DNA of 64,000 nucleotides from Yuukianura sp. NJ FZ-2021. Taxonomy: Eukaryota. Positions 16,500-53,010 of the stretch are shown here, in pieces (position 1 is the stretch's first letter; the number at the start of each line of letters is the position of its first letter). The stretch is from the NCBI GenBank assembly GCA_046563655.1, contig CM102289.1, forward strand, positions 3,968,001-4,032,000, given 5' to 3'. The position numbers were made by a program, and so were the translations under genes. Below the pieces are notes generated by a model, which saw only the letters and a program-made list of their open reading frames with translations, was not told the origin of the DNA and ran no database searches.

Positions 16500-16594
16500 C
16501 TCTATCTGCAAATTCCATAAGTAGATGAACTCTAAAAATGAATCTATGAGTTTAGTTATGTAATAAAATTGTTGTATTTGTTTCTTTTAGAAGG

Positions 16595-18208
16595 ATGCCA
16601 CCAAATCCTAGGATTGAAAACAATGTGGCACCGGGTTCAGATTCGACCTTTGAAACCAAAGTGAAGAAGGAAATTTTGTACGATGGATACTTCTACGATG
16701 TCACGGAATGGGTGAAACGACATCCAGGAGGAAAAATTATTGAATTTTATACGGATAGTGGGGAGGATGCGACCTTGGCTGTTCAGCAGTTTCATCAAAG
16801 GTCAACCAAGAAGGTCATGGGCATCATGAGTTCACTCAAGAAACGACCCGCTACAGTTCAAGCTCTGAGCGAACGTAAGTTCTTCAATTCGTGGATTTTT
16901 CGGTTTGATAAATTCATATTTGTTTTGGTGCTAGGTGGACTAGACAATGAAACTTTGAGACGCCATGACGCTCTCACCATTGACTTTCAAGCACTTTTCG
17001 AAGAACTAAAGGCTGAAGGAAAGTTTATTCCATCTCCGATCCATGTCACTTACCGACTTATGGAACTCGTGATCTTCGCTGCTCTTGGAATCTACTTGAT
17101 TCTCCAGGATGCGTTGTGGCTAAAGACACTAGGAGTATTGAGCTTCGCAATGTTTCAAGGTCGTGCGGGATGGCTACAGCATGAAGGAGGTCATCACTCA
17201 TTGACGGGAAACCCAAAGGTGGATCGACTTATTCAGGCTCTCGTATATGGTAAAAATCATCTTAGAATTCTGAAATTCAGCATTAGATTGCGTAAGATCT
17301 ATTTTTTTCAAAATAAAATTCAGGACTTGGTGATGGAATGGCTTCAAGATGGTGGTCCAGTCAACATAACCGCCATCACGCCATGCCGCAACGTTTGAAG
17401 CGCGATGTGGATCTCGAGACATTACCGCTGCTGGCTTTTAATTCCAAAGTAGTCAAAAATCCAAAGCATGGGAAAACATTCCTAATCCAAAATCAGGTTA
17501 GAAATCAAAACTTACGTCGTAATTTGAGGTTTCGAAAGCTTCAGGTACTTTTCTCACGAAAATTATGGACTTTTTTTTGAATTAGGCAATACTGTTCCTG
17601 GCGATAGATACGTTGTTGGTAGCTACAATGTGGAAAATTTACCTTCATCCACGCTACGTAATACAGCGAGGAAACTACCACCAATTTATTTTCATGGCTC
17701 TTCACTACGTCCTTGCGTACTACGTTGGCTTCGTTCCGTACATGATCTCTGTCTGGCTCGCGTCTGCGTACATCTTTGGCAACTTTGCTCTTTCCCACAC
17801 CCATTTGCCAGTGACATCAGGGCCCCTGCATTGGGTAGAATACGCACTACTCCATACCATGGACGTGGAACCATCTTGGTGGTGCAATTGGTGGATGAGC
17901 TACTTGAACTTTCAGGTGATTTCAAACGCAAATTATTTATGAAATAGTGTAATTTAAAAGCAAAATCTCACATTCAAAAAAAAAATCTCAAATCATTTTT
18001 CAAAACCTCAAACGAATTTTTTTAAATCTAGATCGAGCATCATTTATTCCCGACGATGCCTCAATTCAGACATCCGCAAATCACAGACAGAGTGCGAAAA
18101 TTGGCAGAGAAACATGGAATTCCTTACCATTGTGCGTCCTACTCCGATGCAGTGTGCCTCACATTCAAGAATCTGGAACATGTATCCGAGGATCTCAGAC
18201 ACCAGTGA
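16595..18208 (+). CDS. Front-end (delta-4/5/6/8-type) fatty acyl desaturase with cytochrome b5 domain, copy 1
   Basis: HPGG heme motif and His boxes HEGGH, HNRHH and Q|IEHH. Five coding exons, stop TGA 18206-18208. Confidence 0.95.
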
Positions 18209-20559: not shown

Positions 20560-21850
20560 TGTTGCAGTAGAAAGTGTTAGGAGAGAGTCAGCACGTCTGG
20601 ATTCTGCCGCAACTTTAGCTCATAGCAGTTCGTATATTTGGACCCTAACTAAACAAAACTCAACAGTCCTCCTTAAGTTCAAAGCTCGAGTTTCATATCA
20701 GCATGATTCAATGACTTTTGAAGAGCAAAACGAGGTCAAACAGGATTTTTACGAAGCAAAATAAGAAAGGCATCTTTTTTCTACTGGACACCAGTCTCTT
20801 ATATTCGGCAGACTTATTACATGCCACTCTTTTCTCTTTTAAGTCTATTTGGACCTTTCTCAATAACGACATAATCTCTCTTAAGTCAAAAGATGTTCGA
20901 CCGGCATTGAGAATGTTGACAAAACTAAAACTACGGCGTGTCTCGTTTTGAGAACACGGTTTTCAAATTCGAAAATCGCCTTACAAACCGCTAGCTTTGC
21001 TAAATATCCATTTTTTGAAATTGTGGCCACAAACCTAAAAGGAAGAGCTTTTTTGGAAGGTTAATTTTTCCATAACCCAAAAATACAACAACAAAAACTG
21101 TCAAACAAAAGGCAAACTACGGTGTACAATGTACACTGTACATGCTGCATAACTAGTAAACCTTCCTGGATTAGTAAAATTTAGCCAATAAATTATGGCA
21201 ATTCCAAATCTTTGAAAATAACACATGGACAGAGGAGCAACTTTTACTTTTTAAATGTGTTAAATATATTTTTTATTGCAAACGCTACTCCTGCATTACT
21301 TTCATCTTGGAGTTCGCATGTACATGTGTACCAACGGCGTTATTGCACTAAAAACTGTTTTTAATCACAATTAAAACTAAAACTGTTTTGAACAAAAATG
21401 TGACGTCCGTGTTTATATTACTCATCGCACAGAAAATTTTGTCTCAAAAATCCATCATACTACTGACTCTGCTAGATGCTAAGAAGGAATATGACATACT
21501 AATTTTATTTTTAAAACATCTTAACCCGTTCAAAAAAGACGCAATGCTTTTGACAGATGCCATCGAAATCCACAACCAAGAGGATTCAGACGTACGCTTC
21601 AGTTGAAGAAACGAAGCGCCTATTTCATAAAAATGATAAAACAATCACGAAATTATCTGGATTCAAATGAAAAAAATTGACGTAATAATTTCCAGTGAAA
21701 AATGACAAAAAGACAGCCACATCAAGGTTACTTTCACGCATGTCAACAATTCCTAAGTCCGCATTAACAAGAAGCGACAGAACAGATTTCCTTTTAGTTA
21801 GTTCGAGATAATTTAGTTGTGTTGTATAAAGTAATTACAGTAAAATAGAA

Positions 21851-23478
21851 ATGGCACCGAATCAAACAACAGGAGGAAACGTAGAAACACACTCAGATTC
21901 TACGCTTGAAACAAAGATCAGGAAAGAGATTTTATACGACGGTCAATTTTACGATGTCACGGAATGGGTCAAACGACATCCAGGAGGAAGAATCATTGAA
22001 TTCTATACGGACTGTGGGGAAGATGCTACTTTGGCTATTCAGCAGTTCCACCAAAGATCATTTGAAAAGGTTACAGGCATCATGAGTTCACTCAAAAAGC
22101 GACCCGCTACAGCCCAGGCTCTGAACGAACGTAATGATTACATTATGAGTCGTAATTTATTGAATTGATAAGTTTTTCAGTTGAAAAAATTCATGTTTTT
22201 GAATTTGGTGGTAGAAGCAGAACTGGATAATGAAAGGCGGAGGCGCCACGGCGCTCTTACCCAGGACTTTCAAGCACTTTTCGAAGAACTCAAGGCCGAA
22301 GGAAAGTTTACTCCGTCTCCGATCCATGTCACTTATCGACTGCTGGAAGTCGCAATTTTCGCGGTGCTTGGAGTCTACTTGCTGTTCTGTGAAACGTTTT
22401 GGCTGAAAGCAATCGGAGTTTTGAGTTTTGCGATGTTTCAAGGTAGGGCAGGATGGGTTCAGCATGAGGGAGGCCATCACTCATTGACTGGCAATCCAAA
22501 AGCGGATCGATTTATTCAAGCTGCTGTTTTTGGTAACGAAATGTTTATTCGAAAATGACATTCTTCTAAAAACAACACAAAGCGAAACGTTTGTTTTGCT
22601 AGGACTGGCAGACGGAATGGCAGCAACCTGGTGGTCCAGTCAGCATAACCGCCACCACGCCATGCCGCAACGTCTGTCGCGAGATGTGGACCTAGAAACA
22701 CTTCCGTTGCTAGCATTCAATTCAAAAGTTGTGAAAAATCCAAACCATGGAAGAACGTTTTTTCTTCAAAATCAGGTAACACATTCATGTTTCAGTCGTA
22801 AAACGACGAAATTTGGTAACTTTGAAAGCTTCTTAGTGTTGATTGTAGTAAAAGTATTTGGCACAATCAGTAATTTTTTGTGCTGTTTCGGTTAGGCAGT
22901 TCTGATGGTAGCAGTAGATACCTTGTTAGTCTCTACCATGTGGAAACTCTATCTTCATCCGCGCTACGTTCTGCGTCGTGGCAACTACCACCAGTTTATT
23001 TTCATGGCTCTTCATTACGTATTTGCCTACCACATTGGATTTATACCGTACATGATCTCCGTGTGGCTTGGATCTACTTACATCTTCCTGAATTTTGCAC
23101 TGTCTCATTCTCATCTTCCCATTGCATCTGGCCCACTACATTGGGTTGAATATGCATTCCTCCATACAATGGATGTGGAATCATCTTGGTGGTGTAACTG
23201 GTGGATGAGTTACTTGAACTTCCATGTAATTCAGAGTACTTAACATACTCAAATTCAAGAATGAGTTGTTGGACAGTTAAAACTTTTGTTTTCTTTTGAA
23301 GATTGAACACCACCTCTTCCCGACAATGCCAGGATTCAGGCATCCACAAATCGCTGATAGAGTGCGAAAGTTGGCGGAAAGACATGGAATTCCTTATCGA
23401 TGTTCGTCTTACTTTGACGCAGTACGCATGACCTTCCAGAACTTGATTCATGTTTCCGAAGATCTCAGGCAGCACTAA
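21851..23478 (+). CDS. Front-end fatty acyl desaturase, copy 2 (third His box HIEHH)
   Basis: Close paralog of 16595-18208 with the same five-exon layout. HPGG, HEGGH and HNRHH are present. Exon 4 ends AAC TTC CAT|GTAATT (23226) and exon 5 starts ATT GAA CAC CAC (23302). Confidence 0.93.
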
Positions 23479-25689: not shown

Positions 25690-28600
25690 TTATTGCCCAG
25701 CAAACCGTACTACCATCTGAAAAGGGTTCAGAATCGTACAATTAAAAGACGTAAACAAACCAGTCCTTATATGAGTCAATAATTGCGCTTGTATACCTGA
25801 ATTGTACCCATGTTAGGCACGCCTGCAACATACTCATCCAAATTTGCGACAACTCTTTGGTTCACAGAGTATGGCAAACGGTCAAACGGATACCCCATAG
25901 GTTTAGCATCAGGATAAAGCTGATTTGCTACGCCACAGAACAGTGGAGCAGCAATGCACGACTGTCGCGTGTTTCCACCAGGAACGAAGTCGTCGTTGCT
26001 ATTGGTTACCATCACGAACAAATCAAACACCATTCCTGCCGGCGTTCCTTTTGGCAACAGCATATTCCGCGGCCATCCACAACCACAATAAGGAGTACGC
26101 ATACTCGCGTCACCATTAAGCTCTTGCAAAGATTGGGCCCAAGGAACCGTTAGCGTAGAGTCCACTGATCTCCGTTGTAAGTTGTTTACTCCCGGGCGTA
26201 CTGTTAAGAAACAAAACAATCAAATCGGTTATAAGAACTTAAAATATGTTATACTTGTTTTTACGTTGAACGCCGTAAGTGTCCAAAACGAAAAAGAAGC
26301 GACGCTGATGTATCATGCTGAAGCGGTTTCCATTTTCATCAAATCGTGGTGCCAGGAATATTCTAACTGTCCCTTGCACATTAGCTTGGTTATCGTTGTT
26401 CTTCAAACAGTGAAACAGTTCAACAATGTTACAATCTTTCTTAATTTGGTATCTAAAAAGCTTCAAGAAAACTTACAACAGTCAGTTGATACGTAAACTC
26501 CTCATGGTCCAATTGCTTTGCACAAATTTGAATTGGACTTGTATTGGGCATAGACTGTAAGTCGAGTCCACGGCTGATTGTAATGGATTGCTGACTCCAA
26601 AATGTTGTAACTTGATTGGTCGTGCCAGATTGAGCTGGAACTACAGCCAAGCCTGTGACTCGTACTCCCGGCCACATTAGAGGTAGCTCACCCTGAAAAT
26701 ATTAGAAACTTAAGTTGACACCATGTTACGGAAGTGTAAGCAAACAATTTCAACGAACTCGGATCTAATGTTGACACATACCCCGTTTGGAGTGTATGGT
26801 GTTAGCCTATCTTTATGAGCTAGAAACATTTCCTGGACCACTTGATGCCAACGGTAAAACAGTGGATCACGTATCGCTGGAGCAGCGTCGCCCATGACTC
26901 CTGGAGCCGTCTACAAAGAAAATAACATATTGCGATATATTGCGTATAATACGTACGTTTTAATGTAAACAATTATACACAAGCCGCCAAATCTAAACAG
27001 CAGCTTGTCATACCCTTGAACGATACTGCGGATCTGCTATAAATCCAAAGATGAGATGACCATTATTGTGTATGCCAGTGGCCGAAGTGGAGCCGTAGTA
27101 TGAAGGATTTATACTCCATTGGTTTGATTGTATAATGTTGCCGAGGATGTTAATACCCTGGAGATTGTTTATCGAAATTCGTTGGTTCCGTGTCTAAACA
27201 GGTTAAGTTCATGAAACTCATTAGACAGACGGCTAGCTTTACATTGGCGGACGTGTGCAAGTAAAATCAAATTACGTTAATCACAAATCCGTCATTGATA
27301 GACTGAAGTACTCTAGCCCTTGCTTGCAGTATGTGCGTGTCAAACAAAACATTTGTTTGGAGGTTGGGGTCGTTTTGATGAAGAATATCCTGCATTACAT
27401 TAGTTTTAGTAAAGTTCAAGGCACATTTACTGCAGGTTGTTTTTTGAAAGTGGAACCTACGGAAACTGGTAGATTAGCAGGACGTGGAGTCCAATCCATC
27501 CCAGAATTATCATCTCGCAAGTGTGGATTGTAACCTTCCACAGTGGTACCCCGTTGAAGTGGAGCAATCGGTTGGACTCGGCTTAATCCATTTGAAAAGC
27601 GGTCGGCATTGTACCTTCGAGATAAAGTAGTAACATAGGAATATGGGATTTTAATATCTATCAATCCAAGAATTTGCCTTAGTTTAGTTCTCGTACCGGG
27701 CAACAATAGCACTGTGTAGGTAGTAGAAGAGTTCGCCATGTCTGTCTTCCTGTTGTCGGGCACCAAACGGGTACATGGTATGATAGTACCAATGATGCGA
27801 GTTGATACCGATGCTTTCGCGAAAGTACCACATTGCATTTTCTATTCCATTGTCCGCACCTACAGTCTCATCCGCAACTACGCAAGTCTAGCAGAAATGT
27901 TTACAAATCAGTAACTCTGTTTTTAAAAAATCTCAATTAAGGTCGAGTGCTGGTCACCTGTTGGTTCTGGCGCTTGCCGCGTCTTCGTTGTTGTCTTGCA
28001 AGTCTAAGAGTTTCCGAATAAATAAACAAGTCAGGAAGAGCATCAATTGGAGGTACTCGGTGAATAACTTGTAAGTCTGGGTTCTTCTGGGCAAGGTTGG
28101 CCAGAGCGTAGTACCAAAGATGAGGGTGAACGTTTTGATTCTTTTGTAATGATTTGGCAATGTCAAGCATTTCAACAGTGGAATTTCCGCCTATGAGCAG
28201 GAAAGTGGATGATCATTGATCAAATAAAACGTTAACTAATATTACTTCAGTTTAAATAAAATTAACGCTATTTCAGTCATCTTACTGAGCAAAATTTGTC
28301 TGACTTCATGCAAAGCCTCTCCATGAACAGGAGAGAATGAATAAAACATCCCAGCCTTTGGAACGCGCTGTGCAAGATTACTCATGTCCGGAAGCGGATA
28401 GAGTGTCGCCGGATCTGGACGAGGTGATGGAGACCCTGCTTTCGGAAATAGATCGTGATATTTGTTGCGAATGAAGTCCATTATGTCCTGAGGCGATGGA
28501 ACCCCCGGGGGTACACCTCCACTCGCTGGCTGACTTGGGGTTGAACCCCCGGGGTTTTCTTGACCCCCACTCAGTGCTGGTCCCTGCTGTGGTTGATTTC

Positions 28601-28850: not shown

Positions 28851-29418
28851 TTTTAAATTTGGGGGTTCTCCAAGCAGTTAGTGATGGAGAAAAATGGTGC
28901 TTGAACTCAATATCAATCAGGATAGCTTATGCCAAATGGATTTTGAAAGCTAGATGTCCTGAATTTTACTTTCATCGTTTATTAATGCCGACTCCATTGT
29001 TGCCTTTGCCCTTGAATTAGAATCATAGAAGTGTTCTAAACTTGCGTCAGACAGCTTGTTCGATTTTATTCGAAAGTATGTCAGATTGGCTTGTGCTTTC
29101 AAAGCGTCCATTTTGAAGCCTTGTTAATATTTGAACTTTTATAATCTTCATTGAATGTTGTCTAAATGGAAAGCTAATGCTACTTTAAAATGTCTAAAAA
29201 GTTGGTGAAATGCTGTTTAGTAAGATTTTGAATGAGGCCATTTTCAGTTTTGAGTTCGGAACAAGCAGAATTAAAAACCCAAAATGTGAAATCTAATCGT
29301 AGATAATGGAAGACCGCGATAAAAGCAATTACAGTTCTAATCATGACCAGGGTTATAGTAATTTTTTTTCAAAAAATATACAGTAGCCTTGTGTTTTCGG
29401 ATTTTCTTGATTTAAAAA

Positions 29419-30360
29419 ATGGGACGGGTAATATTTGTTGCGATTTTATTTTTGGCTGATTTAGCTCTGGCACAAGATTGCCCACCGTCAGAAATTTTAG
29501 CACCATGCACTTGCAACGAACAGAAGAAAGTGATCACTTGTCAGTGGATCAACGAAGAATGGGATATCAAAGTAACATTCGACGCTGCTTCAGAAGCCAT
29601 TGACTCTGACGTTATTTTCAACAAATTAGAATTATTCGATACAAATTTAGAAAGCATTGGACAGGACGCCATTTCAAGCCTCAAGTTTCGTCGAATTGAA
29701 ATCAAAGGAAATCCACAATTGACGTTCATTTCTCCACAAGCCTTCAACGCCACCTACGCTCACACCACAACCCTAAGTCTCTGGAACAATCGACTAACCA
29801 ATCAGAACAACGAATACGACATTTTCCAATTCATCAGCAAATTCACACAGGCTACAAGCATCGACCTTACTCTAAACGAGCTTACACAAGTTCCAGAAAA
29901 CGCATTTGAATTCCTTCCCGCACTGACTGAATTGCTCATTCCACGCAACGCCATTACTCAGGTCAAGTCTTTTGCGTTTTCTGGACTCACGAATTTGACA
30001 TCCCTCTCGCTTACTGCAAATCAAATTAGCCCAATTGGTGTAAGAGCTGACTCTTTCCTAGGAATGAGTCCAAATGCAGTTGTTTCCTTGGCGTCTAACC
30101 CAATTGAATTTTTAGAAGAGGGAATTTTCAAACCATTAGTTGATGGTGTCACTTTGACTACAGTTGGAACCACTTCTTGTGACTTGGATGACTACTGTAA
30201 CTACAAACATCTTATCTGTGACGCCAGAGCAGAGTGGATTTGCAGCAACGTTGATTACTATGAACAGAAGCTGGCTGGATTCATGTGCAGTGATGAACAA
30301 AGTGTGTTTGACTATTGCAGAGAACAAACTGGCCAATTGAAAAACAATATTAAACTATAA
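29419..30360 (+). CDS. Secreted leucine-rich-repeat protein (single exon, 313 aa)
   Basis: Signal peptide, N-cap CPPSEILAPCTC, repeated LxLxxNxL units (LSLWNNRL, IDLTLNEL, LSLTANQI) and a Cys-rich C-cap. Resembles arthropod LRR proteins often labelled Oplophorus luciferase non-catalytic subunit-like. Confidence 0.88.
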   Translation: MGRVIFVAILFLADLALAQDCPPSEILAPCTCNEQKKVITCQWINEEWDIKVTFDAASEAIDSDVIFNKLELFDTNLESIGQDAISSLKFRRIEIKGNPQLTFISPQAFNATYAHTTTLSLWNNRLTNQNNEYDIFQFISKFTQATSIDLTLNELTQVPENAFEFLPALTELLIPRNAITQVKSFAFSGLTNLTSLSLTANQISPIGVRADSFLGMSPNAVVSLASNPIEFLEEGIFKPLVDGVTLTTVGTTSCDLDDYCNYKHLICDARAEWICSNVDYYEQKLAGFMCSDEQSVFDYCREQTGQLKNNIKL

Positions 30361-30573: not shown

Positions 30574-31391
30574 TCACTTTTCATCAAATGCTTTTCCTTG
30601 TGATTTTACAATGACTCTCCAAGCTGTGGCTCCGCCAACAACAAAAACACCGATGAGAACAAGAATCCAACTGAAAAAGTTCCAGTGGTTGACGGTAGAT
30701 TGGGACAGAATTGCTTTGTAGTATTGGATTTGGTCAATCTCCGCCGTCTATGAAAAATAACACCCTTATTAGTATAGTTTAGCTTTGTTTTTAAAGATTC
30801 ACTCAAATTAGTGGAAAGAATTTGTTAAGATTAATTATTCTAGTTAGAATTAATATTTCAATTGACAAATAACCTCCTGGATATGTATAAATTCTGCCAA
30901 CTTGAGAGGTTCCTCCCCTTCTTCTGGCTCGGCCTCCTCCCACTTGCTCATTTCCAATTCTACTGCCAATTCACCACCACCAACAGTCCCATTCTTAACA
31001 TTTATTTTAAAAAATCCATAAATTTATTCAAAAGTGTCAAGAATCCTAACTTTTTATTGAATTCTTGTCTTACCGATGCCCCCACATGAGCAACTTCAGT
31101 GATTTTCGCTTTAATTGAGATTGCCAACGGAATGCTGATCCAAGCCATCAGTTCCTCATTTACTGGCAACAGTTTCAGACCCTGAAATCAAAATGCCAAA
31201 AACGACGCATTTTTTTCAAATTTGTAATAAATAGGTAAAGTATATAATAAACTTACAATCGGTAGTCCAATGCGCAGTACTAAACCGAATCCACCAAGCG
31301 TCATGAAGACAGTCATAAGAAGAACAAATGAAGAAATTATGATTATTGTTAGCGAAGCGCAGTGCCGTCCCTTCTTCATTTTTCCAGTCAT
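30574..31391 (-). CDS. Two-TM membrane protein, mini CD36/SR-B-like, paralog A (~178 aa)
   Basis: Exons 31391-31257, 31181-31074, 30993-30874 and 30747-30574, with all introns phase 0 GT-AG. TM1, LKLLPVNEELMAWISIPLAISIK, IHIQE|TAEID, TM2 WNFFSWILVLIGVFVVGGATAW. The gene model is well supported; the family call is inference. Confidence 0.7.
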
Positions 31392-32477
31392 GAGGCGGAA
31401 TGATTTGAAAAGTTTCTAGACAACGACGTCTCAAAATGTTCTGCTTTTTCCTCCACCCTCTCAAGAAATCAACTGACTTCTTGCGAATTTTGAAAAGTTT
31501 TAACTACCACAGCGTGTTGGCGTCTTTTTCAAGGTTTTTGAATATTTGATTGCAAAATGGTCAAACAAAAGGCGTAATTAAGTCTTTTCCAGAACTGTAA
31601 TTTCCAATAGGAAATCAATCTTTTACTCCTCGTTGAATACAGAATGGAATTCTTAATCAAGCCAACCTTCGACTTCCGATTTGACCATTTTTCACCAAAA
31701 CCAAATGTTTGAAGTTCTAATTTGAATTTCGAATTGTGTTTTTCTTCAATATTTCGATCTATGGCGTTCCCCGGAAATTTTAAAACGTTGCAGCCAGTAG
31801 GAGCGGCAAAGCATAAGCAGTAAACCAGATAGGAAGTTACCAGGCAAATGTGCCAATGTTCCGCCCTAACTGGTTCCTCTCACTCTATCTTTCTTATGCC
31901 GAACTTTTGCACAGAGACAATATCAATCGATTCAACTTTATGTCGAATGGAAACTATTAAGTTTTTATGTAATTCTGTCTACATAGAAAAAATGGAGAAG
32001 ATAAGTTTTATTTTTCATCAAAAAGTGAAGAACCATGTCATATTTTATAAGAATCAATGAATCTATATCGGATTTTTGACTTTATTATTCAAAATGCGAA
32101 GGTCAGCGCACTTCCAAGAATCGAGTCCAGCGGCTTTAATCTGTATTGATTCGTGGAAATGGTGACTTTGTTTCGTAAATGGTTAATTGCAACCTTCTCA
32201 CCACACCAATACTGCCTTCTCGAAACCAATTTTCAAATTTAGAGCACCTAAATTCTAGCTGCTTCTAACTGTCAAGGTCTTCCGCTTGTTCCAGGGAAAT
32301 CGAAATGAAAAATACCAATAATTGCTTTTGTTTTTCTGCTAACTTTGACGTGGACAAAATGACGACGGCGTAAATAAGACTTGCATTTGCTTTTCAGCAA
32401 AAGACAAACGAAGCAACAGTCTCGGAATCCAAGTTGGCGTATAACTGTCGCCTTCTCAGTCACTTTTAAGAGTCAGC

Positions 32478-33395
32478 ATGGGAGCAACGACGATTCCCAC
32501 GGTAGTACTATGTGTCGGTGTAGTTTTCATACTGCTTGTAGCACTCATTGGATTTGGCGGAAAGGACAAATTTGTGCCCCTCGATGTGCCATTTGTAAGA
32601 TCAGATTTAATTACTTTTGAATTTCCGATTACTTGCGATTTCCGTTTTTTTAACATTAAAGTTTTACTAGCGAGAGTTTTTGGCAAAATTAGCACAATTT
32701 TTGTTTCCTTTGTTATCTTAAAGGTAGAAAACTCGTTTCAGTTTCGTATTTTTTGACAAATTTTCAAATTTTTAAGGGGATGCAATTCAATCCTTCCGGA
32801 GGCCCTGAACTGCACGTCTGGGCCAACACACCTCTTCCAGCATACATTCATGTTGTGTTGTCCAACGTAACAAAAAAGGAAGAAGATGGTTCTGTTACTT
32901 CCGGAATTGACATCTTCGAACTTTTTCCAGTAAAGTTGAATTTTGTACATTAAAAAAGTCAAATATTAAATAGTTTTAATAATATAAACTCTCAGACGGG
33001 TGAAGGATCAAATTTTGGAGGGGCGAATGCAAAGTTCTCAATGCGCTTGATCTCAGCTTCCGAAGTGCCAGAATTGAATAAAACAATGGACATGGTGCCA
33101 ATGGTTTGGCGGAGAGAGGTAAATTCTGGCATCACGCGAAAGAGATAAATTACAAGAAAATCGAACTGAATTTGATATTTTATTCTATTGATTTTTCAAA
33201 TTTTAGCCGACGGTGGGCGGATTCGAGCAGTTCATCTACATTGCAGCCTCATTTTCGCTGAATAACTGGGCCTTCCTCAGTTGGTCGATTATTCTGAGTG
33301 CCCTTTTAGCATTGGGTCTCGGCGTGTTTTTGTTCATGCGCGAACGGAATGCGGAAAATGATGTCATGCCGGTAGAAGCAGCAGCAGACGAGTAA
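32478..33395 (+). CDS. Two-TM membrane protein, mini CD36/SR-B-like, paralog B (~193 aa)
   Basis: Exons 32478-32594, 32777-32929, 32996-33118 and 33207-33395, all phase 0. TM1, WANTPLPAYIHVVLSNVT, IDIFELFP|TG, ANAKFSMRL, MVPMVWRRE|, TM2 WAFLSWSIILSALLALGLGVFLFM. Confidence 0.75.
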
Positions 33396-33866: not shown

Positions 33867-36659
33867 CTACGTCGCCCTGTGTTGTCTTAACTCAATTGAA
33901 TTTGATCTGCGTATTCTTCTACGAGTACATTTAGTTGAAATCCATGTTCCAACTTCTGTTAGTAGAAGTTTCAATTCTTTGCGAAATTTGTGTCCGAGAC
34001 AGGCGTAGAGGATGAAATTGAGAGCAGAATTGATGAGTATGGGGAGACAGACAATTGTTGCTGCAACTTCAGGCTCTACTCCCTTCAGAATCAAGTTGAG
34101 TTCTAATGCAGCAGCCACAGAGTTGCACAGGATGAATACGAACACAACAATCAGCAACATTCTGGTCAACGAAGTGTCATGTGCAGAACTATGTGTGGTT
34201 GCAGTGAGTTGTCGCTCTTTTGCTGCTTTTGTTACCTTATAAACATAACATGAGCAATACATTTTATAACTTTAGCTTTGTGTTTTTATAACATTTGTTT
34301 TCAAGTTACCGCTCGAATGATGAGTATGTTGAGTGTGACAATGGTAACAAATGGAATCAAGTAGATACATAGATACCAGAGCAGTTGCTGGTAAATGATT
34401 TGGTAGAGTGGAAATCTGTGCAACTGGCGCGGGAAGCTTCTGCTCCACTCAGGAGATGATGCTTCGTAGCTCAATTTGACAAATTCAAACCAACGCGGTA
34501 GATTTAAAATTGTTGCAAATCCAAATACTAGCAGTGTGTAACGTCGTGCTTTGCGAATTGTAAACATTGATGATACCCGCAGTGGCTTTGAAACTGCAAC
34601 ATATCGCTCCGACGTAACAAAAATCGTCATGTATACCGCCGATGTATATACTGGACATTGCATATATGATGAATATATTAATTTCAAATGTGTAAACTAC
34701 ATAACTTTTTTTTTTGTGGATTTTAATGCTTACTTGTTCTGTTGATTGGGTAGGCCACGTATCCGTTCAACTTTGACCGCAGGAACTTTTCTTGAAACAA
34801 ATTACCGAATTCCTCCGATGTTACAAACGATGTAATCAAGTATATGGAATCGGAGCATGTGAGTCCCAAGAGAAGTATACTTGTTGAGCTACGCATTCCC
34901 TTGCGCATGAGCACAGCGATGCTCAAGCAGTTGCAAATTAGTCCAAATATACAGATGCAGTAAACAAATGTCATGTAGGTGTTGTAAATTTGTGACAACA
35001 GCCTTGATGTTATTTCCTCTTCCGAGAATCCATGTAATTTCAAATAGCGTGTAATCCGGTACTCTTTTCTGAGCAAGCGCCAGTAATTATCGTCGAAGCG
35101 ATCAAACAAGTATCCGTGCATCCCGTTTAAAGTAAACCGTAGTGTCTGTTCACGTGTAAAATTGTTGGAAGGAAATGTTGCGTTTAAAATTGTTTTTATG
35201 ACTTTTTTAAATTGACCTTTGACCTTGTCTCCAGGCTCAAAAACAGGCATTTTGATGATGATCTCTTGAGGTCGGTGTTTTACAAATTTTAAAAGCAACG
35301 TTTCAGATAAAACATCCTCCATATTCATCGTAACTTCCTCTACATTTGGAAAAATACTGCTTATATTGTCTAAAATTGTGTTGTCAATTGTACACCTCAT
35401 GAGTGTCAAATTTTTTAAGTTTGACAACACTGGCACTGGTAATATTTTAGCTGTAACGTCAACAAATTGCAAATTTAAGCGTCTTACTGAGCTCATTCCC
35501 AGTAACCCCAGGTCAACTACAGGACACTCTTCATCCAAATACTGACAGTTGATGGCCAAATGTGCCAATTCGTTGCTTTTCAAAATATCATTGAGCGTAG
35601 TATTCCACAAGTATGAATTGAATAGGTGAAGAAATACAATGTTTTTGGATAAACTGAAAATGTCGAGGCCAATGTCACCAAAAGTCAACCTAAAACTCAG
35701 TAGTTTGTGGAAATGTCGCAAGTGCGGAGGAGCCGAATTGTAGCGGAAACTCAACCATTCTGTATCAATTCTGACGAGTGATTTAGCGGGAAGAAATGAG
35801 ACGTCAATTGCTTCCGGAACTTTGCTAGAAATCGTAAGATATTTAAGGACAACGGCTGATTTTATGAGTTGTGATATAGTACCTCCAATGAGGTCATTGC
35901 CTGTCAAGTACAAAGCTTCGACCGAGGTCAAGTCCAATGACTTCACATCAATTGTGCAATACTCTGCGGAGAATTTTTTGAACTTTGGGATCATGCTGTA
36001 CAACAGAGTCCAAACGGCCATATCTTTAATGTTCTTTATGCCCAACATTGAATTGCTAAATTTCATATATCCATGTTCTTGAGTAGAGAACTGAATTTCA
36101 AAATTCAAATTCTCGAGTACTGCGATTATTCCTGTGCTTACATTTGTATAAAAGAAGATCACTGAATCCAACGTTTCGCAGACTTTCCCAACATAGGGTG
36201 AACCGTCAATTTGCTTGAACTTAAAATTTTTTAAATTGGAGAGGTAAATGTTTTCGAAATTCGTTTCAGTTTTCCACTCCCACTCTACTTCTGTCAACTT
36301 CAAACTTGTCAAGTTGGTACAATTGGCTAAAAAATTTGCAAGCGTGGATCTTCTTACACGCACAAATTTCAAAACCACTTCTGTTATTCCACAATGGCCA
36401 TCTACTTGTAACATTTTTTCAACTGCTTCGAAATCCTCCAGAAAAGTTTCGTTTCCTTCCAATATTAGTCCATTTTCCTTCAAAAAGTATGTAGTAATCA
36501 TTATATACAATTATTGCGTTTATACATAATTAAACGTTCTACATTAATTTGTATTAATATTTTAAGATCCTGCTGATTGGGGTTACTTACAGTGACATTC
36601 CACTCGGCCTTCGCCTCTGAAACAACCAAAAATACTAATAAACTTAGGAAGAAGTTCAT
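33867..36659 (-). CDS. Class A GPCR (FMRFamide/peptide-receptor-like 7TM) with signal peptide and large LRR/RNI-like ectodomain
   Basis: Exon 1 MNFFLSLLVFLVVSEAKAEWNVT|GTAAGT (36659-36591). A long exon has LxxLxL-type repeats running without a break into TM1 (FGLICNCLSIAVL, MRSSTSILLLGLTCSD). Also SERYVAVSKPL, LNLPRWFE, IPFVTIVTLNILII and INSALNFILYACLGHKFRKEL. Confidence 0.85.
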
Positions 36660-41007: not shown

Positions 41008-44000
41008 TTACGTTTGAGCTGGTAGCGGAAAATGGTCAACTACTTCTCCATTTTCTAGGCGAACGTAATTCACATCCTGACCCCATGGGTTAGCGTAAGA
41101 CATTTCAACTACGCGTGCACCGCGAGTCCTTCCGACCCAACCACCACCATGACCAGACTGCCTATTGTAGCACAGTACCGTCGTTCCATAGTTGCAACAC
41201 CAACCGTTCGCTGTTAATTACAAAACCACTTTTAAAGTCGAGTCAGATGGTTACAGTAATTACATAAATTATGCTCCGTTTCAAAACTTTATTCCGCCTG
41301 TGTATTTCTCTGGTCCCCGCTCCCAACGCCTCCCCCTCTACCTTTCTCCAAATTTTGAACCAGGTTGGCGCGAAATATTCTGGTTTGTTTACATTTTTTC
41401 AAAACTTTGCTTACAGCTGATTCTCTTCAAGAACACTTTTAAAGTTTCTCTTTCGTTAAGTTTTAATTTTTTTAAACCCAATTCCGAAAGGTTAGTTAGC
41501 ACTGGGGAGTACCGTATTTTCCCAAATAGTACACCTGGTGTACTAATTTTGTTTTCGACTTCTGGGGGTGGTGTACTATTAGGGACCTGGTGTATTATTA
41601 GAGACGGTGTACTAATTAATTTTTTAAGAATGAGGATTTTATTCTTAGCTAAAACGTTTAGGAATCAGGAGAAAATAATTTCTAAATTACTAAAAACTAC
41701 TCCACTTCGTTTTCAGAATCCGTATCCACAGTGTCCAGCTCGTATTCTTCTTCTCCACTTGAGTCAATTAACACTTTGTTAACACAATTAAGCTTTGTTC
41801 CGTCACCTTTGGCCGCTAGAACAAGCGTTGCGTGTGCCTTCTCATTTCTAGTCGACTTTAGTTGAACAGTTTTAGATCCAGTTGGAGCAATTGTTGTGTT
41901 GCTCAGCATGTCGAACCACAAACTGATTTCATCCATTGCAATAATTTGGGACGGTTCGATCTTACGCTGGCGTACGACTTTACTTATAAATGTAGCCAAA
42001 TCTGCAACTTTTGAAAACAATTGATCCGGATCCTTTTGTCCTACTGTAGTCCTCCGTCTTAATGATAGTGAGTGTCTTTTGAGAAAACGATCCAGCCAGC
42101 CCAAACTTGCGACGAACTTCGTTCTGTTTCCGTTATCCAATGTTGGGAAAATCCTCTTCGCCTGCTCTTGAATCGAACGCCGTGAGACTCTTAACGATTT
42201 GTTTCGTTGTTCCATAATCCAGTAAAAGAGTGAATCATTCAACTCAGGTATCAATCGTTTCCGTCCAGCGCCGATCAACCTTTTGTGTTTGATCTTGGAT
42301 GATTTCACGTTTGACACTGTAAACAAAATACTGTTTCAGTATGAATGTAATAATTAGGAAAAAATATTTTATTCACAATAAATTACTCACCTAAATCATT
42401 TTCCTTTCTAATCCATGTCCGAATACTCTGTCGATCAATGTTGTATTCTTTAGCAGCTGCCGCAATTGATTTATCCTTGGCCAATTTCACCACTTTCAAT
42501 TTGAACTCCAGGTCAAATGATCTTTTTTTGTTGGGAGACATTTTAAAGTAAGAATACGAATTTTAAGTAAAACAATTTGGAGAGAAGTAACGTGGGGCCA
42601 AACACAACAAAGGAAGAGCTATAATATTAGCTCAGCTAACTGCTCCGGGTGGTATACTCCTAATGCTACATTCCCAAAGACCCTGGTGTACTATTAGAGA
42701 CCTGGTGTACTATTTGGGACGGTGTACTAATTAATTTTTCGACTTCTGGGGGTGGTGTACTATTAGGGACCTGGTGTACTATTTAGGTATGGTGTACTAT
42801 TAGGGAAAATACGGTAAGTGTAGTGATGACGAGTGTATTAACACCGCCGAATCCTCCTCCAGTACGTAAGATTAAGTCTCCAAACATTAAATTGTCCGAG
42901 ACTAGATACATCCAAAACATCTATGAGTACTTGAAATTTGTGAAAGAGAACACTGGCAAAGAAAATATTCCAATTGGATTCGTTACTCCAGGGAAAAAAA
43001 CGTAAGTAATACGTTGGATTGAAAACCAAATCAAATACTTCAATTCTGAATACGTCATATTTCGAAATTGAGTATGGCTGTAAGAAATCAATTCCTGTAA
43101 TTTCAGATTCCTCAAATCATAGGGAAAATGGTCGGGGTTACCGAAAGAGCAGTGAGGAATCATTTAAAGAAAACAGACTTGGAACCAAGGAAACATAGAG
43201 GAAAGAAAACGAAGCAAGACAACATAGAGGATTTTGAAAAATGTGCCATACGCGATTTGATTACACAAATGTTCATGACGGTTAGTATAAGAAAATCAGT
43301 TTTTTGCCTAAACAATACGAAAAATGATTGTAAAATTCTGTTATTTTTTTAAAGGAATTTACGTCACTTTGTACATAACCATAACATAATCGATTATGTA
43401 CCTAACCTTATTCTTTGATGCATGTGCAAAAGTAACTGCATTTGATTGGATAAATGCGATCCGTCATTGCAAAAAAGAAGAAGAAAAGTACTGGATCAGA
43501 GACGGAATTTCGTCAATGACACCAATTCAACCCATTGTTTTCATGGTGAACACTGGAGACTCAGATGAAAGTGATGAGTTTAAAGAAACCGATAACGAGG
43601 AAAATTAAATCGCTAATTATCTGATAGTTTTATGTGAATGTTTTGTTTCTAATACCATAAAAATGCTACTGAAGATTAAAAAAGTTTTTTGGGTATTTTC
43701 GTGATGTTTTCCTTATTGTCACTACATTTCTAGCCGACGCATGGTTTTACCTCCAACTTGAGACAAACCTCCTTCGGGAGAAAGTGAAAGCGGTGGGGGA
43801 GCCCGTCAAGAGGAGACGGAATAAAACTTTGAAACAAAGTATAACTTCATTTGAACGTATATTAAGTCATACCGTGATTATGTCCAGCAAACGTAATTTT
43901 TACCATGCCCGATGTAACAAGAGCATCAATAAGCCCTGTATCTGGATCTTGCGGGTTCACGACATCATCTTAAACAGAAACAAGAAAACCTTTTGTTTTC

Positions 44001-45131: not shown

Positions 45132-45595
45132 CCTTTGTTATACGCTTTGAAAATTTTTTTCCCCGTAAAACCGAGTTTTCAAAGTACAAAAAGAAATTCT
45201 AAACTAAATTCTACAACTTTCACAACGCATCATCACTTTATTTCAATAATCTACAATTTTGTAATATTCACCAAATTATTTATCAGCTCATCCAGAATCA
45301 GATTATCGAAAACAAAAATTTATAATTACTGGTTTTACCAAATCAAATAAAGTGTTTACAATTTTTCATTTTGACATTACATGACAAAACGAAAGTACAT
45401 GTGAACTCCAAGCACTCTTGATAAACATTCTTTTATTTTGGAAATGTTTCAGAAAGTTAAAGGTCACGTCAAAGTCAGTTTGTTATGTCCTTGTAGAATT
45501 TAGACCGTGATAAGCAAAGACCACTTTAGTTTTATTGTATCTTCTTTGCTTCTCAAGCGTCAGTTTCAATTTTAAACAAACTGACAATTTTAAAC

Positions 45596-47673
45596 ATGTC
45601 TCAAAAGTATTCGATTTTGTTTGCGCCACTCGACGCCGTCGGTCACGTCAACGCCTGTATCAGTATTGCGCAGACGCTGCGTGACAGAGGTCACAAGGTC
45701 ACGTTTGCTACTCCATTGAACTGGAAAGGAAAGTTACAACTCCTGGGATTTCATGAAGAAGTGTACGCAACTACGGAAACCAAGCAGGAGGATTCAGGCC
45801 AAGTAGGAGACACTTGGTCTCAAAATGTAGCCAAAATGGCGGCAGTTTTGGGCTGTTCCCCAATCGAAAGGCACGCAAAATTTCAAATTGAAAATTGGCG
45901 CAGTATGTTTGAGCAAATCAAGTACCAACATCCCAGGCTCAAGGAAATCATGGACACGGTTCAGCCGGACGTCGTTGTAGTAGACTACCTTTCACATATT
46001 CCCGCTCTCATGAATCACGGTATTTTTCAACAAATACAAATACTTTATACAATTTATATGTAGTTGTGAAATATATCAAAATGTAAAATATAAAATATAT
46101 CATTTCCCCACATGCATCTCGTAAGCATACGTGGGCGTGCATGGCAGATCGGGATTAGAACACAAACTTTCAATAATTTCAATTTCCGTCCAAAGCTTCA
46201 TCTGTCAACTTTTTATGCAGGTACAACTCCATGGATATTTCTGATGTCATGCAATCCTATTGGTATTTCGGATGTTAACGTTCCTCCTGCCAATTCCGGA
46301 TATCCAACTGATGGTGATCGTGAAATCTGGCGGAAGTACATGGAAGAAGTAGAACGAGTTTACAAAAACGAATTTCTGGAATATAAAAAATGGATTTTGG
46401 AAAATGGCGGTCCCGAACTGGAGTTCACATACCCATACTGGATGAAATACTCTCCCTGGGCAAACATTTACAAGTTCCCGCTAGAACTGGACTATACCGA
46501 CCTCCGACCAAATCCCAAAAACTGGTTTCGATTCGATGGATTTGTAAACGACTGCGCAGAGAGTTTCGAAATTCCCGCAAACCTACGTGATAGAAGCGGG
46601 AAGCTAATTTACTTCTCAATGGGAACTATTGGCTCCGCGGATGTTTCTATGATGAAGAGGCTCATGTCCATTTTGGCCAAATCTGACAACAGATTTATTG
46701 TGTCAAAAGGTAACTCAACACACGAAAAAAAAACAAGTTCCAATTGGATTTTTTTAAAAAAAAGTTTTCAAATTTTTAATTTGAAGGACCAATGGGAGAC
46801 GAATTTGAGCTTCCAGAGAACATGTGGGGGTTGAACAGCGTTGCGCAGACGCAAATACTCCCCTGCGTTGATTTAGTGATAACTCACGGCGGGAATAACA
46901 CAATTTCGGAATCGTTTTTCTTCGGAATACCACTGCTCGTTTTGCCTGTGCTCTGGGACCAGTTGGATTCTGCACAAAGAATACACGAATGTGGTCTGGG
47001 TCTTAGATTTGACCCGTACAAGGTCACCGAAACGGAACTTCTGGAAGCCATTGAACAGTTACTGAGCAATCAACTACTCAAAAAAAGAATGAGAACAATT
47101 TCTCAAAGAATCCGCAGCTCAAATAGTCAAAATGCAGTTGCTGATTTGATTGAAAAAGTCGCTGAGGAAAGAAAATCTGAACAAAAACTTCATGTTACAA
47201 GGTGTAAAATTGATATACGAAGTCCAGAAACTACTGAAGAGTGGGATGACTACTACTCACTTCGGTATGAAGTTCTGAGACGACCTCTTGGACAACCAGT
47301 AGAGTCGGCGCGAGTAGAGGACGATGACAACTCGTATCATTTTGCAGCATTTGAGCATGGGCACAAAGTCAAAGAAGTCCTCATCGGAGTAGTTTGTGTG
47401 AAGTTTAAAACGGAGGAGACAAATTCAGATGCAAAGTCTACGATGCAATTGAGACTGATGGCAGTTATGGATGGTAAACAAGGGAATGGAATCGGGAAGC
47501 AATTGGTTCTACATGTTGAAGAATTTGCAAGAAAGAAAGGAGCCACGAAGATGTTTCTGGAAGCTCGCGAAAACGCTGTCAAATTTTATGAACGTCTTGG
47601 TTACAATGTTGTTAAGAAAAGTCATCTACTTTTTGGAAAAATTCAACATTACTCAATGGAAAAGTTGCTGTAA
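45596..47673 (+). CDS. UDP-glycosyltransferase (bacterial MGT-type GT1) fused to C-terminal GNAT acetyltransferase, 599 aa
   Basis: Exons 45596-46019, 46221-46709 and 46787-47673 total 1800 nt in frame. UGT motifs: GHVNAC (catalytic His), IYFSMGTIG, AQTQILPCVDLVITHGGNNTISES...PVLWDQLDSA. GNAT from ~47209: LRYEVLRRPLG, QLRLMAV..QGNGIG, ARENAVKFYERLGY. Confidence 0.92.
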
Positions 47674-52408: not shown

Positions 52409-53010
52409 CCTAATTCTTACTATCAAACAAACGAAAGCGGTAACAGCTTGATTACAGTAGATAGCAGGGACATTGACAAATAAAGTTCAGATTAAGTTTC
52501 CCATCCAGTTTTACACTAAATCCAGTTTGGAGTGAATTAAAAAATTTATTAAAAATTACGTATTAAAAACGAAACGCTTAAAATGCGATATGATGAGAGT
52601 AGATTTTCGAAATAAAATAGTAATGAATAACTTTGTTCCACTTCTAAGCGGTGTGTAACATTCTTGGTTCAAATGTCAATACCACTTATGTATCCTTGCA
52701 TTGCAATTAGCTTTATCATAAACCGGTTCTTTTGAAATCTGAATTTACAAAACGAAGGCGAGCCTTCCACTACTAAAGAATGTAGGCAAATCAGGAAAAA
52801 AAATTATTGCAAAACTGAGTTTCATAAAAAAAACTACGTATGGTTCATGCAAAAGCATGAACAACAAAAATTGTGCTTCGCATTGCGCACATTTGCGTTA
52901 CACGACTTCTCGCACGTGTTCGTTGTTCTTTTGAACAAGAAAAAAAAGAGAAACTACAATGGTAAAAGATAGAATTTTTATTAATTTTTAATTTTTAATT
53001 TTTTAACACA

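Follow-up and report, generated by a model that had tools for sequence, protein, structure and literature searches.

The receptors of the CD36/SR-B family have been studied as whole ectodomains, in which the tunnel and the apex do the work. Shortened forms are known from human CD36 and SCARB1, where the gene itself is full-length and the short isoforms and truncating alleles arise by splicing or as disease alleles. Truncated-paralogue regulators, of the 'microprotein' or decoy-subunit kind, are small paralogues that retain the interaction part of a protein and are without its working domain. In the structural account consulted for the CD36 fold, the N-terminal motifs M1 and M2 and the C-terminal motifs M17 and M18 make up the longest strands of the barrel, which lie next to one another in space (PMC10715195). 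For SNMP1, a review reports a series of 17 short ectodomain deletions, every one of which eliminated the response to pheromone (PMC7873011). The literature returned for naturally shortened or miniature CD36 families comprised, in the text available from it, human alleles, peptides and unrelated papers alone. SNMP4 was considered as a known short group and set aside, as the accounts at hand describe it solely as a scarab-beetle expansion and not as short. A stripped-down form of CD36 is apparently without earlier description.

Our study revealed two neighbouring genes, A and B, within the window, by which we mean the whole 64-kb stretch of DNA that was analysed. They are divergently transcribed, have four exons each and encode small two-pass membrane proteins (Table 1). 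We consider A and B to be real and intact genes that probably descend from a CD36/SR-B gene via an in-frame internal deletion and a subsequent divergent duplication. A sequence-only reading of this DNA had proposed two divergent four-exon genes of about 178 and 193 aa, with three phase-0 introns in each, and both genes were found in place, with all six introns in phase 0 and bounded by GT..AG ends; the motifs that it had quoted for the two proteins were all present. The spacer between the genes presumably holds both promoters and includes a 116-codon open frame without a Pfam match. No third paralogue was found in the window by tblastn of A and B.

Table 1. Parts of the divergent gene pair, with positions counted from the first letter of the window
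Feature	Position	Strand	Length	Description
Gene A	30574-31391	minus	178 aa (45+36+40+57)	
A exon 1	31257-31391	minus	45 codons	Start codon, basic N-terminal tail, first membrane helix
A intron 1	31182-31256	minus	75 nt	Phase 0, CD36 profile position 40|41
A exon 2	31074-31181	minus	36 codons	L-x-L-x-P...W-x3-P-L segment, aligned to CD36 profile 41-67
A intron 2	30994-31073	minus	80 nt	Phase 0
A exon 3	30874-30993	minus	40 codons	Acidic loop segment with the sole A sequon (N82)
A intron 3	30748-30873	minus	126 nt	Phase 0, GTTATT..CATAG
A exon 4	30577-30747 (stop 30574-30576)	minus	57 codons	Loop end, N-x-W-x-F-x-S-W, second helix, short tail
Spacer between start codons	31392-32477		1086 bp	Start codons point away from each other
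Gene B	32478-33395	plus	193 aa (39+51+41+62)	
B exon 1	32478-32594	plus	39 codons	Start codon, first membrane helix; aligned to CD36 profile 1-40
B intron 1	32595-32776	plus	182 nt	Phase 0, CD36 profile position 40|41
B exon 2	32777-32929	plus	51 codons	Putative fusion exon
B intron 2	32930-32995	plus	66 nt	Phase 0, between P90 and T-G
B exon 3	32996-33118	plus	41 codons	'A-K-F-S-M-R-L' and 'V-P-M-V-W-R-R-E', aligned to CD36 'R-x-Q-I-N' and 'P-x-x-W-x-E' strands
B intron 3	33119-33206	plus	88 nt	Phase 0, immediately downstream of W-R-R-E, at profile 430|431
B exon 4	33207-33392 (stop to 33395)	plus	62 codons	Juxtamembrane segment, N-x-W-x-F-x-S-W, second helix, acidic tail

Hydropathy predicted one membrane helix at either end of each protein (residues 14-32 and 145-163 in A, 6-24 and 157-175 in B), as the sequence-only reading had claimed. 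N-glycosylation sequons occur solely in the loop between the helices, those of B being N69 and N118, and the loops of both proteins contain zero cysteines. Smith-Waterman alignment of A with B gave a score of 84 (z 8.8, 500 shuffles). Restricting the comparison to the loop lowered z to 1.6 and tblastn gave no cross-match between the two genes, so their paralogy is drawn mainly from adjacency, a common topology and exon-intron layout, and the N-x-W-x-F-x-S-W motif that precedes helix 2. With the Smith-Waterman z of the whole proteins added to these shared features, we accepted the earlier suggestion that A and B are old paralogues.

The similarity to CD36 was quantified using a home-made profile of modest size; its members trace back to motif-selected seeds but were not themselves picked by motif. 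A motif scan of metagenome contigs yielded 89 loci, 85 of which were CD36 N-terminal exons by a GP[YFW] test, and each of nine full-length open frames matched PF01130 (E 1e-110 to 1e-157). A further 17 proteins were fetched, and the profile was based upon 14 proteins, 10 of them without the search motif. Against this profile B scored 17.5 bits (p 5.5e-8), which lies below the gathering score of 26.5 bits that serves as the cut-off of the Pfam CD36 model, and it did so in two colinear domains, with residues 1-75 placed on profile positions 1-74 (11.7 bits) and residues 106-181 on positions 417-496 (4.0 bits). Split matches to the two ends of the CD36 model had been predicted, and hhalign agreed with them, aligning B 6-75 to 43-111 (P 2.5e-4) and B 98-180 to 431-517 (P 0.009, or 8e-4 when limited to the C-terminal part). 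Gene A reached 5.4 bits (p 2.6e-4), and its match was likewise divided over the two ends. A large share of the B score depends on the first membrane helix being in register.

It is conceivable that A and B belong to a lineage-specific two-helix family unrelated to CD36, in which the motif matches arose by chance and were helped by the terminal helices, and public databases offer this reading some support. The Pfam CD36 model gave no match at E<=10 for the eight single exons or for P0003, a relative described below; PDB sequence searches using profile A2 and exons 2 and 3 returned zero matches at E<=10; and the ESM Atlas gave no usable match with P0003. Removing the helices reduced the hhalign comparison to P 0.012 (probability 3.6 %), and the C-terminal loop of B taken alone was marginal (-1.7 bits, reached in 49 of 1000 shuffles). 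However, 17.5 bits was reached by none of 1000 full shuffles of B and by none of 1000 in which the helices were held fixed, the latter having a mean of 0.2 bits and a maximum of 9.8. The N-terminal part without its helix still scored 4.7 bits in B, a value reached in 1 of 1000 shuffles, and exon 2 of P0003 scored 3.5 bits, reached in 0 of 1000. Pairwise comparison of the N-terminal part of B with the N-termini of 23 CD36 proteins gave a mean z of 4.1 (maximum 7.6), whereas swapped and middle-region controls had a mean z of about 0, so that the signal was specific to the correct CD36 end. An unrelated origin is, in our judgement, improbable.

Position by position, the N-terminal strand motif of CD36 (W-x3-P-x-P ... 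F-N-x-T-N-P) was aligned in B at profile 54-75, with W, P, P, N and T kept, and it was aligned at the same place in P0003 and P0004; A retains the W and one P, and its N-terminal part by itself gave 0.2 bits (reached in 12 of 1000 shuffles). Exon 3 of B by itself scored -0.9 bits at the correct place, reached in 16 of 1000 shuffles. The C-terminal part of A and exon 3 of P0003 had no match to the CD36 profile, and neither P0004 (153 of 1000 shuffles) nor the A loop by itself (115 of 1000) was significant against it. Pfam also returned weak matches of a helix type (BNIP3, E 0.007; Sec61_beta, E 1), which were discarded as being neither CD36 nor another meaningful family.

Furthermore, the introns occupy CD36 sites, which chance similarity does not predict. 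The first intron falls at F39|G40 in B and at I45|G46 in A, both of which correspond to profile 40|41 in phase 0, and of the 71 genomic CD36 loci that allowed the test, 70 have a phase-0 acceptor AG at 40|41 (35 of 36 clusters at <80 % identity). The second intron of B matches the phase-0 introns of locus L023 ('...IEP|RSG') and locus L012 ('...MHS|MSG'), and the third those of L012 ('YWYQE|GTACGT') and L024 ('IWAEE|GTATGA'), this C-terminal comparison comprising three CD36 loci. Alignment by hmmalign covered the N-terminal domain alone, and intron 2 was placed by greedy or global hhalign. A genuine CD36 gene need not have all three introns, as L023 is without the W-x-x-E intron and L024 without the E-P intron. 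Each of the three introns of B shares its position and its phase with an intron of genuine CD36 genes, as had been anticipated with reference to the human gene, the genes compared here being arthropod-like and from metagenome contigs. One detail of the sequence-only reading, the pairing of '...IHIQE|TAEID' in A with 'LDIxPxTG', is probably wrong, as exon equivalence points instead to the intron after W-x-x-E. At the level of sequence and gene structure, a descent from CD36 is supported, chiefly for B, with A linked mostly via B.

The loss that this descent would entail is large. About 300 profile positions (~76 to ~380) are without a counterpart in A and B, in good agreement with the earlier estimate of some 280-300 aa including the lipid tunnel and the helical apex. 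With GPY and PHF, the apex helix bundle has gone, as have the tunnel and most of the barrel; hmmalign aligned nothing beyond E75 of B and I72 of A. The cysteines that are invariant in alignment A3 (C265, C294, C333 and C356) likewise have no counterpart in the loops of A and B. On the AlphaFold model of L060, a genuine CD36 protein (pLDDT 72), the retained parts fall on the first and last helices and on strands 60-69, 393-396, 403-416 and 433-445. The model of P0003, made from exon 2, the translated intron and exon 3 with alignment A2, had a mean pLDDT of 41 and was unusable. Since the apex, the tunnel, GPY/PHF and the disulfide cysteines are lost, A and B cannot act as ligand-binding or lipid-tunnelling receptors.

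Relatives were sought by an exhaustive profile search of 1.84 billion representatives, which recovered P0003 and P0004 alone; A was excluded from the search profile because MAFFT put its exon 3 onto exon 2 of P0003. Longer proteins homologous to exon 4 of B were not found, and A, B and full-length relatives were absent from the protein collections searched, so far as these go; the genes appear to be restricted to this lineage. P0003 is 88 % identical to B over exon 2 and 71 % over exon 3, the translation of the intron between them being unrelated, and P0004 is ~54 % identical to exon 2 of B and keeps the same exon end. As in B, exon 2 of P0003 is directly followed by exon 3, and because the shortened architecture is shared in this way, the deletion is read as old and kept. 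Coding differences from runs X1, X2 and X5 were synonymous in seven of seven cases, including five of five variants in exon 4 of B against X1 and two in exon 4 of A (30622 and 30700), where synonymous sites make up ~23 % of coding sites; 21 listed differences were non-coding. Judged from these sequence comparisons, both genes look to be under purifying selection.

These observations bear on the reading that A and B are decaying remnants, i.e. two duplicated CD36 genes that have undergone a large deletion, lost their function and are still transcribed from leftover promoters. Such a fate would account for the disappearance of some 300 positions together with the invariant cysteines and both the GPY and PHF motifs, for an A loop so diverged that it carries no significant CD36 signal, and for a gene B that is without RNA support and a family that is without an annotated homologue among the representatives searched. 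Decay is hard to reconcile, however, with two intact reading frames and 12 of 12 intact splice sites, with coding polymorphisms that are synonymous in all seven cases, and with exons that are conserved in two further taxa when the intron between them is not. We regard the remnant reading as improbable, and the shared short architecture of P0003 also stands against it.

The gene models themselves were examined for splicing and for missed exons. Contigs of run X5 contain the joints 30747>30874 (contig record 15), 30993>31074 and 31180/1>31256/7 (both in record 16), with CT..AC ends, and these are exactly the three predicted introns of A; X5 is listed as 'DNA?', and its spliced contigs are inferred to derive from RNA. 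Exon 3 of A is joined on either side across the two contigs, and record 16 extends to 31424, which provides a 5' UTR for A. The splicing proposed for A was in this way borne out, with all three introns removed exactly. For B there is no X5 cover, and the cover from X4 (12 of 30 bins) is unspliced DNA; its model is based on the canonical splice sites, on exons 2 and 3 being conserved in P0003 where the intron between them is not, and on the synonymous-only polymorphism of exon 4. A six-frame scan of the 64-kb window (2731 open pieces, two CD36 profiles) found no CD36 mid-domain exon, the best mid-domain-like piece having E 1.5 and lying ~28 kb distant. A 34-codon open piece at 32269-32370 with a weak match to the CD36 'C-F-C' region was rejected, being out of order and not significant (E 2.6 among 2731 pieces). 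That the models are wrong, with the exons in truth forming the two ends of an ordinary full-length CD36 gene, or of another isoform, and the middle exons overlooked, is very improbable indeed: B has no spliced reads and exons this small are easily missed by gene predictors, but introns of 66-182 nt hold no open CD36 exon, none of the scanned pieces is a mid-domain exon, the N- and C-terminal motifs lie inside one uninterrupted exon 2 in both B and P0003, and the four exons of A directly abut in the X5 contigs.

Returning to descent by deletion from a CD36/SR-B gene, the composition of exon 2 of B suggests how it may have come about. The 5' part of this exon is the CD36 N-terminal strand motif (W-x3-P-L-P...N-V-T), and its 3' end, '...F-E-L-F-P', is similar to that of the CD36 exon terminating in '...E-P'; we infer a deletion junction between the two. 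In this scenario, an in-frame deletion in a CD36/SR-B ancestor would have removed ~300 codons and the intervening introns, fusing the 5' part of ancestral exon 2, which encodes the first long beta-strand (W-x3-P-x-P...N-x-T), with the 3' end of the exon stopping at '...E-P', while the three flanking ancestral introns would have been retained. The deleted gene would then have been duplicated to give the divergent pair, of which A drifted much further than B. What would remain is the CD36 membrane hairpin with about four membrane-proximal strands, and the products would be hairpin glycoproteins with both ends cytoplasmic and a loop of ~100-125 aa outside.

What such proteins might do can be suggested by analogy. 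The sequence-only reading had named a co-receptor, a dominant-negative or a trafficking subunit as possible roles. We tentatively propose that A and B use their helices and base strands to associate with full-length CD36-family receptors, or with partner proteins of these, and act on assembly, trafficking or activity. More doubtful still is the broader notion that they form a conserved, expressed 'minimal CD36' class, consisting of just the membrane hairpin and four base strands, whose members would be subunits dedicated to assisting or inhibiting full-length CD36, SNMP or SR-B receptors. If that notion holds, the base-and-helix module would have a function separable from ligand binding and lipid tunnelling. 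A form without about three-quarters of the CD36 ectodomain has been kept and duplicated under apparent purifying selection. If functional, it would isolate the roles of the hairpin and of the first and last barrel strands, e.g. in oligomerisation, partner binding or sorting, and would provide both a ready-made tool and a hypothesis for the regulation of full-length receptors. The locus also suggests that one in-frame deletion between two exons can found a small gene family that is missed by standard annotation and Pfam scans.

In comparison with known systems, A and B are closest to the CD36/SR-B proteins (PF01130: CD36, SR-BI, LIMP-2, insect SNMPs and Croquemort), which share with them a hairpin of two helices and a glycosylated loop, both predicted here. 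The L-x-L...W-x3-P-x-P...N-x-T segment keeps the same spacing from helix 1, and three phase-0 introns are at the same places; candidate counterparts of the C-terminal 'R/K-x-x-x-N/R' and 'P-x-x-W-x-x-E' are present, as is a W where helix 2 begins. A and B differ in the loop, which measures ~400 aa in CD36/SR-B proteins but ~100-125 aa in A and B, and in giving no Pfam match. The short forms of human CD36 and SCARB1 resemble A and B in being CD36-family products that are without part of the ectodomain; in contrast to them, A and B have a shortening that is built into the genome and has been duplicated, and that is conserved in other taxa and apparently under purifying selection. Truncated-paralogue regulators offer an analogy for the proposed mechanism alone, in which the hairpin and base strands kept by A and B may correspond to the retained interaction part.

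Our study showed A and B to be divergently oriented four-exon genes spanning 30574-33395, in a eukaryotic window with a G+C content of ~37 %. Their introns are 66-182 nt long (GT..AG), and all six are in phase 0 with canonical ends. The three phase-0 introns per gene, the two terminal transmembrane segments per protein and every motif cited in the sequence-only reading were found in the sequence. In both proteins, N-glycosylation sequons are confined to the inter-helix loop, which is devoid of cysteine.

Genes A and B and neighbouring features of the window
Feature	Position	Strand	Remarks
Gene A, exons	31257-31391, 31074-31181, 30874-30993, 30577-30747	minus	178 aa
A, hydrophobic helices	residues 14-32, 145-163		one near each end
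Gene B, exons	32478-32594, 32777-32929, 32996-33118, 33207-33392	plus	193 aa
B, hydrophobic helices	residues 6-24, 157-175		one near each end
Cytochrome b5-fused fatty-acid desaturase (front-end type)	16556-17947, 21830-23243	plus	two tandem multi-exon copies
Hemocyanin/phenoloxidase C-terminal Ig-like domain exon	25776-26216	minus	arthropod-type; E 6e-26
Single-exon secreted LRR protein	29416-30357	plus	downstream of A
Gene directly downstream of B	33867-36510	minus	LRR-like region and start of rhodopsin-type 7TM receptor
Tc5/pogo-type transposase DNA-binding domain	41697-42335	minus	E 6e-16
UDP-glycosyltransferase C-terminal and GNAT acetyltransferase domains	46780-47670	plus	one open frame
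Pair of large open frames	52999-54063, 56375-57478	plus, minus	inverted, highly similar; 354 and 367 codons

Gene A is real, because contigs of sequencing run X5 splice out exactly its three predicted introns (joints 30747>30874, 30993>31074 and 31180/1>31256/7, with CT..AC ends); one contig continues for 33 nt beyond the start codon on its 5' side. X5 shares its sample with the main DNA runs and is catalogued only as 'DNA?', with exon-shaped cover, and we infer that its contigs over A are RNA-derived. The proposed splicing was therefore confirmed for A, whereas B is without spliced-read support. The model of B is supported indirectly by three lines of evidence, namely two database relatives and the pattern of synonymous differences. 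P0003, a database open frame of 122 aa from a relative, runs from exon 2 through an in-frame intron into exon 3; its identity to B is 88 % in exon 2 and 71 % in exon 3, and the intron translation is unrelated. Exon 2 of the more distant P0004 is ~54 % identical to that of P0003 and has the same exon end. A contig of run X1 shows 25 differences from the window, each of which was classified, and the six in coding sequence (one in A and five in B) are synonymous; a further synonymous difference in A, seen in runs X2 and X5, makes this 7/7, to be read against a synonymous fraction of ~23 % of coding sites. The membrane hairpin and base of both proteins appear to be under purifying selection.

The first searches all used pieces of 36-122 aa as queries. 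Those of Pfam (with each A/B exon and with P0003), of PDB sequences and of the ESM Atlas were empty. A word-indexed search with exon 4 was also empty, and a profile search run exhaustively over 1.84 billion representatives returned P0003 and P0004 only. The paralogy of A and B is very old, as had been claimed, and rests on their adjacency, topology, common exon pattern, first intron at the same profile position and N-x-W-x-F-x-S-W before helix 2. Their alignment reached a z of 8.8 (1.6 for the loop alone), and tblastn gave no cross-match between them.

Genuine CD36 genes for comparison were gathered from metagenome contigs using a 59-nt degenerate DNA pattern of the N-terminal family motif. 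It retrieved almost exclusively true family members: 85 of the 89 loci (L001-L089) continue to GP[YFW] and are genuine CD36 exons, two are truncated short of it and the remaining two are unrelated sequences. Many of these loci come from a few host-associated sample series, and they illustrate the large amount of animal host sequence, both DNA and cDNA, in these metagenome records. Each of nine full-length, non-redundant open frames matches PF01130, the Pfam CD36 family (E 1e-110 to 1e-157), and a profile of their alignment, A3, found 17 further proteins (collembolan SR-B or LIMP-2-like proteins, SNMP2s and platypus CD36). To avoid circularity, the main profile was restricted to 14 CD36 proteins (P0006-P0019), ten of which lack the search motif.

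Spliced B scored 17.5 bits against this profile (p 5.5e-8 for one sequence), in two colinear domains comprising B 1-75 on positions 1-74 (11.7 bits) and B 106-181 on positions 417-496 (4.0 bits). Spliced A scored 5.4 bits (p 2.6e-4) and was also divided over both profile ends, so that the split match predicted earlier was recovered for both proteins. The score of B was reached by none of 1000 full and none of 1000 fixed-helix shuffles (mean 0.2, sd 2.0, maximum 9.8), and that of A by 2/1000 and 9/1000, respectively. With helices excluded, the N-terminal part of B scored 4.7 bits (reached by 1/1000 shuffles), P0003 exon 2 3.5 bits (0/1000), the N-terminal part of A 0.2 bits (12/1000) and P0004 exon 2 -3.0 bits (153/1000, not significant). 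The corresponding values were -1.7 bits for the C-terminal part of B (49/1000) and -0.9 bits for its exon 3 (16/1000), and neither P0003 exon 3 nor the C-terminal part of A matched the CD36 profile. Pairwise comparison of the N-terminal part of B with the first 140 aa of 23 CD36 proteins gave a mean z of 4.1 (maximum 7.6), compared to ~0 for swapped and middle-region controls and 0.7 for the C-terminal part of B. Using hhalign, B 6-75 aligned on 43-111 (P 2.5e-4, probability 43 %) and B 98-180 on 431-517 (P 0.009, or 8e-4 when limited to the C-terminal part), and a helix-free exon profile (A4) aligned to A3 at the same place, but with a P of only 0.012 (probability 3.6 %). Based upon these profile, shuffle, pairwise and hhalign results, kinship with CD36 is solid at the N-terminus and, by sequence alone, suggestive at the C-terminus.

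In our view, intron positions settle the relationship with CD36. Intron 1 of B (between F39 and G40) and of A (between I45 and G46) both fall between profile positions 40 and 41 by hmmalign. Among genomic-type CD36 loci, 70 of 71 testable cases (35/36 by cluster, <80 % identity) have an in-frame AG immediately before the codon for profile position 41, which lies 13 aa ahead of the motif tryptophan; the offsets 11, 12, 14 and 15 aa yield just 0-4 of 84 loci. Comparison of L023 with a homologous uninterrupted open frame, L068 (~47-76 % identical), places an intron at the same junction, in phase 0 according to the L023 DNA. Intron 2 of B directly follows P90 and precedes T-G; phase-0 introns occupy this spot in L023 (after '...IEP' and before 'RSG', GTACGT...ACAG) and in L012 (after '...MHS' and before 'MSG'), and greedy or global hhalign sets P90 opposite the family 'E-P'. 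Intron 3 of B lies directly after W-R-R-E, profile-aligned to W-x-e-e, exactly where phase-0 introns occur in L012 ('YWYQE', then GTACGT) and L024 ('IWAEE', then GTATGA...AAACAG). Among the three CD36 loci that cover the C-terminal part (L012, L023 and L024), L012 has all three introns, L024 lacks the second, and L023 lacks the third and has instead a phase-2 intron nine residues earlier. Introns 1-3 of B and intron 1 of A thus correspond to introns of these CD36 loci.

Approximately profile positions 76-380 are without counterpart in A and B, in agreement with the ectodomain loss claimed earlier. The deletion would have removed the GPY and PHF motifs, the invariant A3 cysteines and the introns in between, and exon 2 of B would be a fusion exon, in which a 5' part from the start of ancestral exon 2 is joined to terminal residues from the end of the '...E-P' exon. 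A scan of the whole 64-kb window for extra exons found no CD36 mid-domain exon. A 34-codon open piece in the A-B spacer (32269-32370, plus strand) contains 'N-N-C-F-C-F-S', a weak match to CD36 'N-x-C-F-C' (profile positions 316-334); it was rejected as a relic CD36 exon, its E value of 2.6 among 2731 pieces being not significant and its order wrong.

Elsewhere in the spacer, 31703-31851 is covered by an X5 contig with 15 mismatches, and at 31754-31924 an X4 contig of a related organism has 151 other letters in place of 169 nt; both observations hint at an element, repeated or rapidly evolving, that separates the promoters. The first open frame of the gene downstream of B (595 codons) holds the LRR-like region and the 7TM start, and the receptor continues in the next two. 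The hemocyanin-type exon is the strongest sign in the window of an arthropod-like host. The tandem desaturase copies have closely similar exon translations. Within 45530-47673 on the plus strand, exons upstream of the glycosyltransferase-GNAT open frame resemble the rest of a glycosyltransferase, and the frame would be an unusual fusion. Each member of the inverted pair has a hydrophobic N-terminus and an acyltransferase-reminiscent 'H-V-L-G-D-G' motif; 52999-54060 gave no Pfam match. The transposase domain is probably a transposon remnant.

Literature on mini, truncated or derived CD36, SNMP4, Collembola CD36 and class B internal deletions returned human alleles, peptides and unrelated work only, and the available parts of PMC10715195 and PMC7873011 do not mention shortened family members. 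The mini-CD36 pair is real, its conservation extends at least to close relatives, and annotation easily overlooks it. Judged from the retained sequence, CD36-type receptor or lipid-transfer activity would be excluded, since the tunnel and apex could not form from what remains. As the membrane hairpin and base appear to stay under purifying selection, A and B might associate with full-length family members or the partners of these and modulate assembly, sorting or activity, which is our best guess, though one of low probability; an unrelated new role and slow decay are the alternatives. The retained parts map to helix 5-41, strands 60-69, 393-396, 403-416 and 433-445, and helix 448-491 of a genuine CD36, L060, as modelled by AlphaFold (pLDDT 72, pTM 0.74). 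According to PMC10715195, the longest strands of the CD36 barrel are formed by motifs M1 and M2 at the N-terminus and by M17 and M18 at the C-terminus, and these are spatially adjacent; because these strands adjoin, the CD36 remnant could plausibly form a small sheet atop the membrane hairpin.
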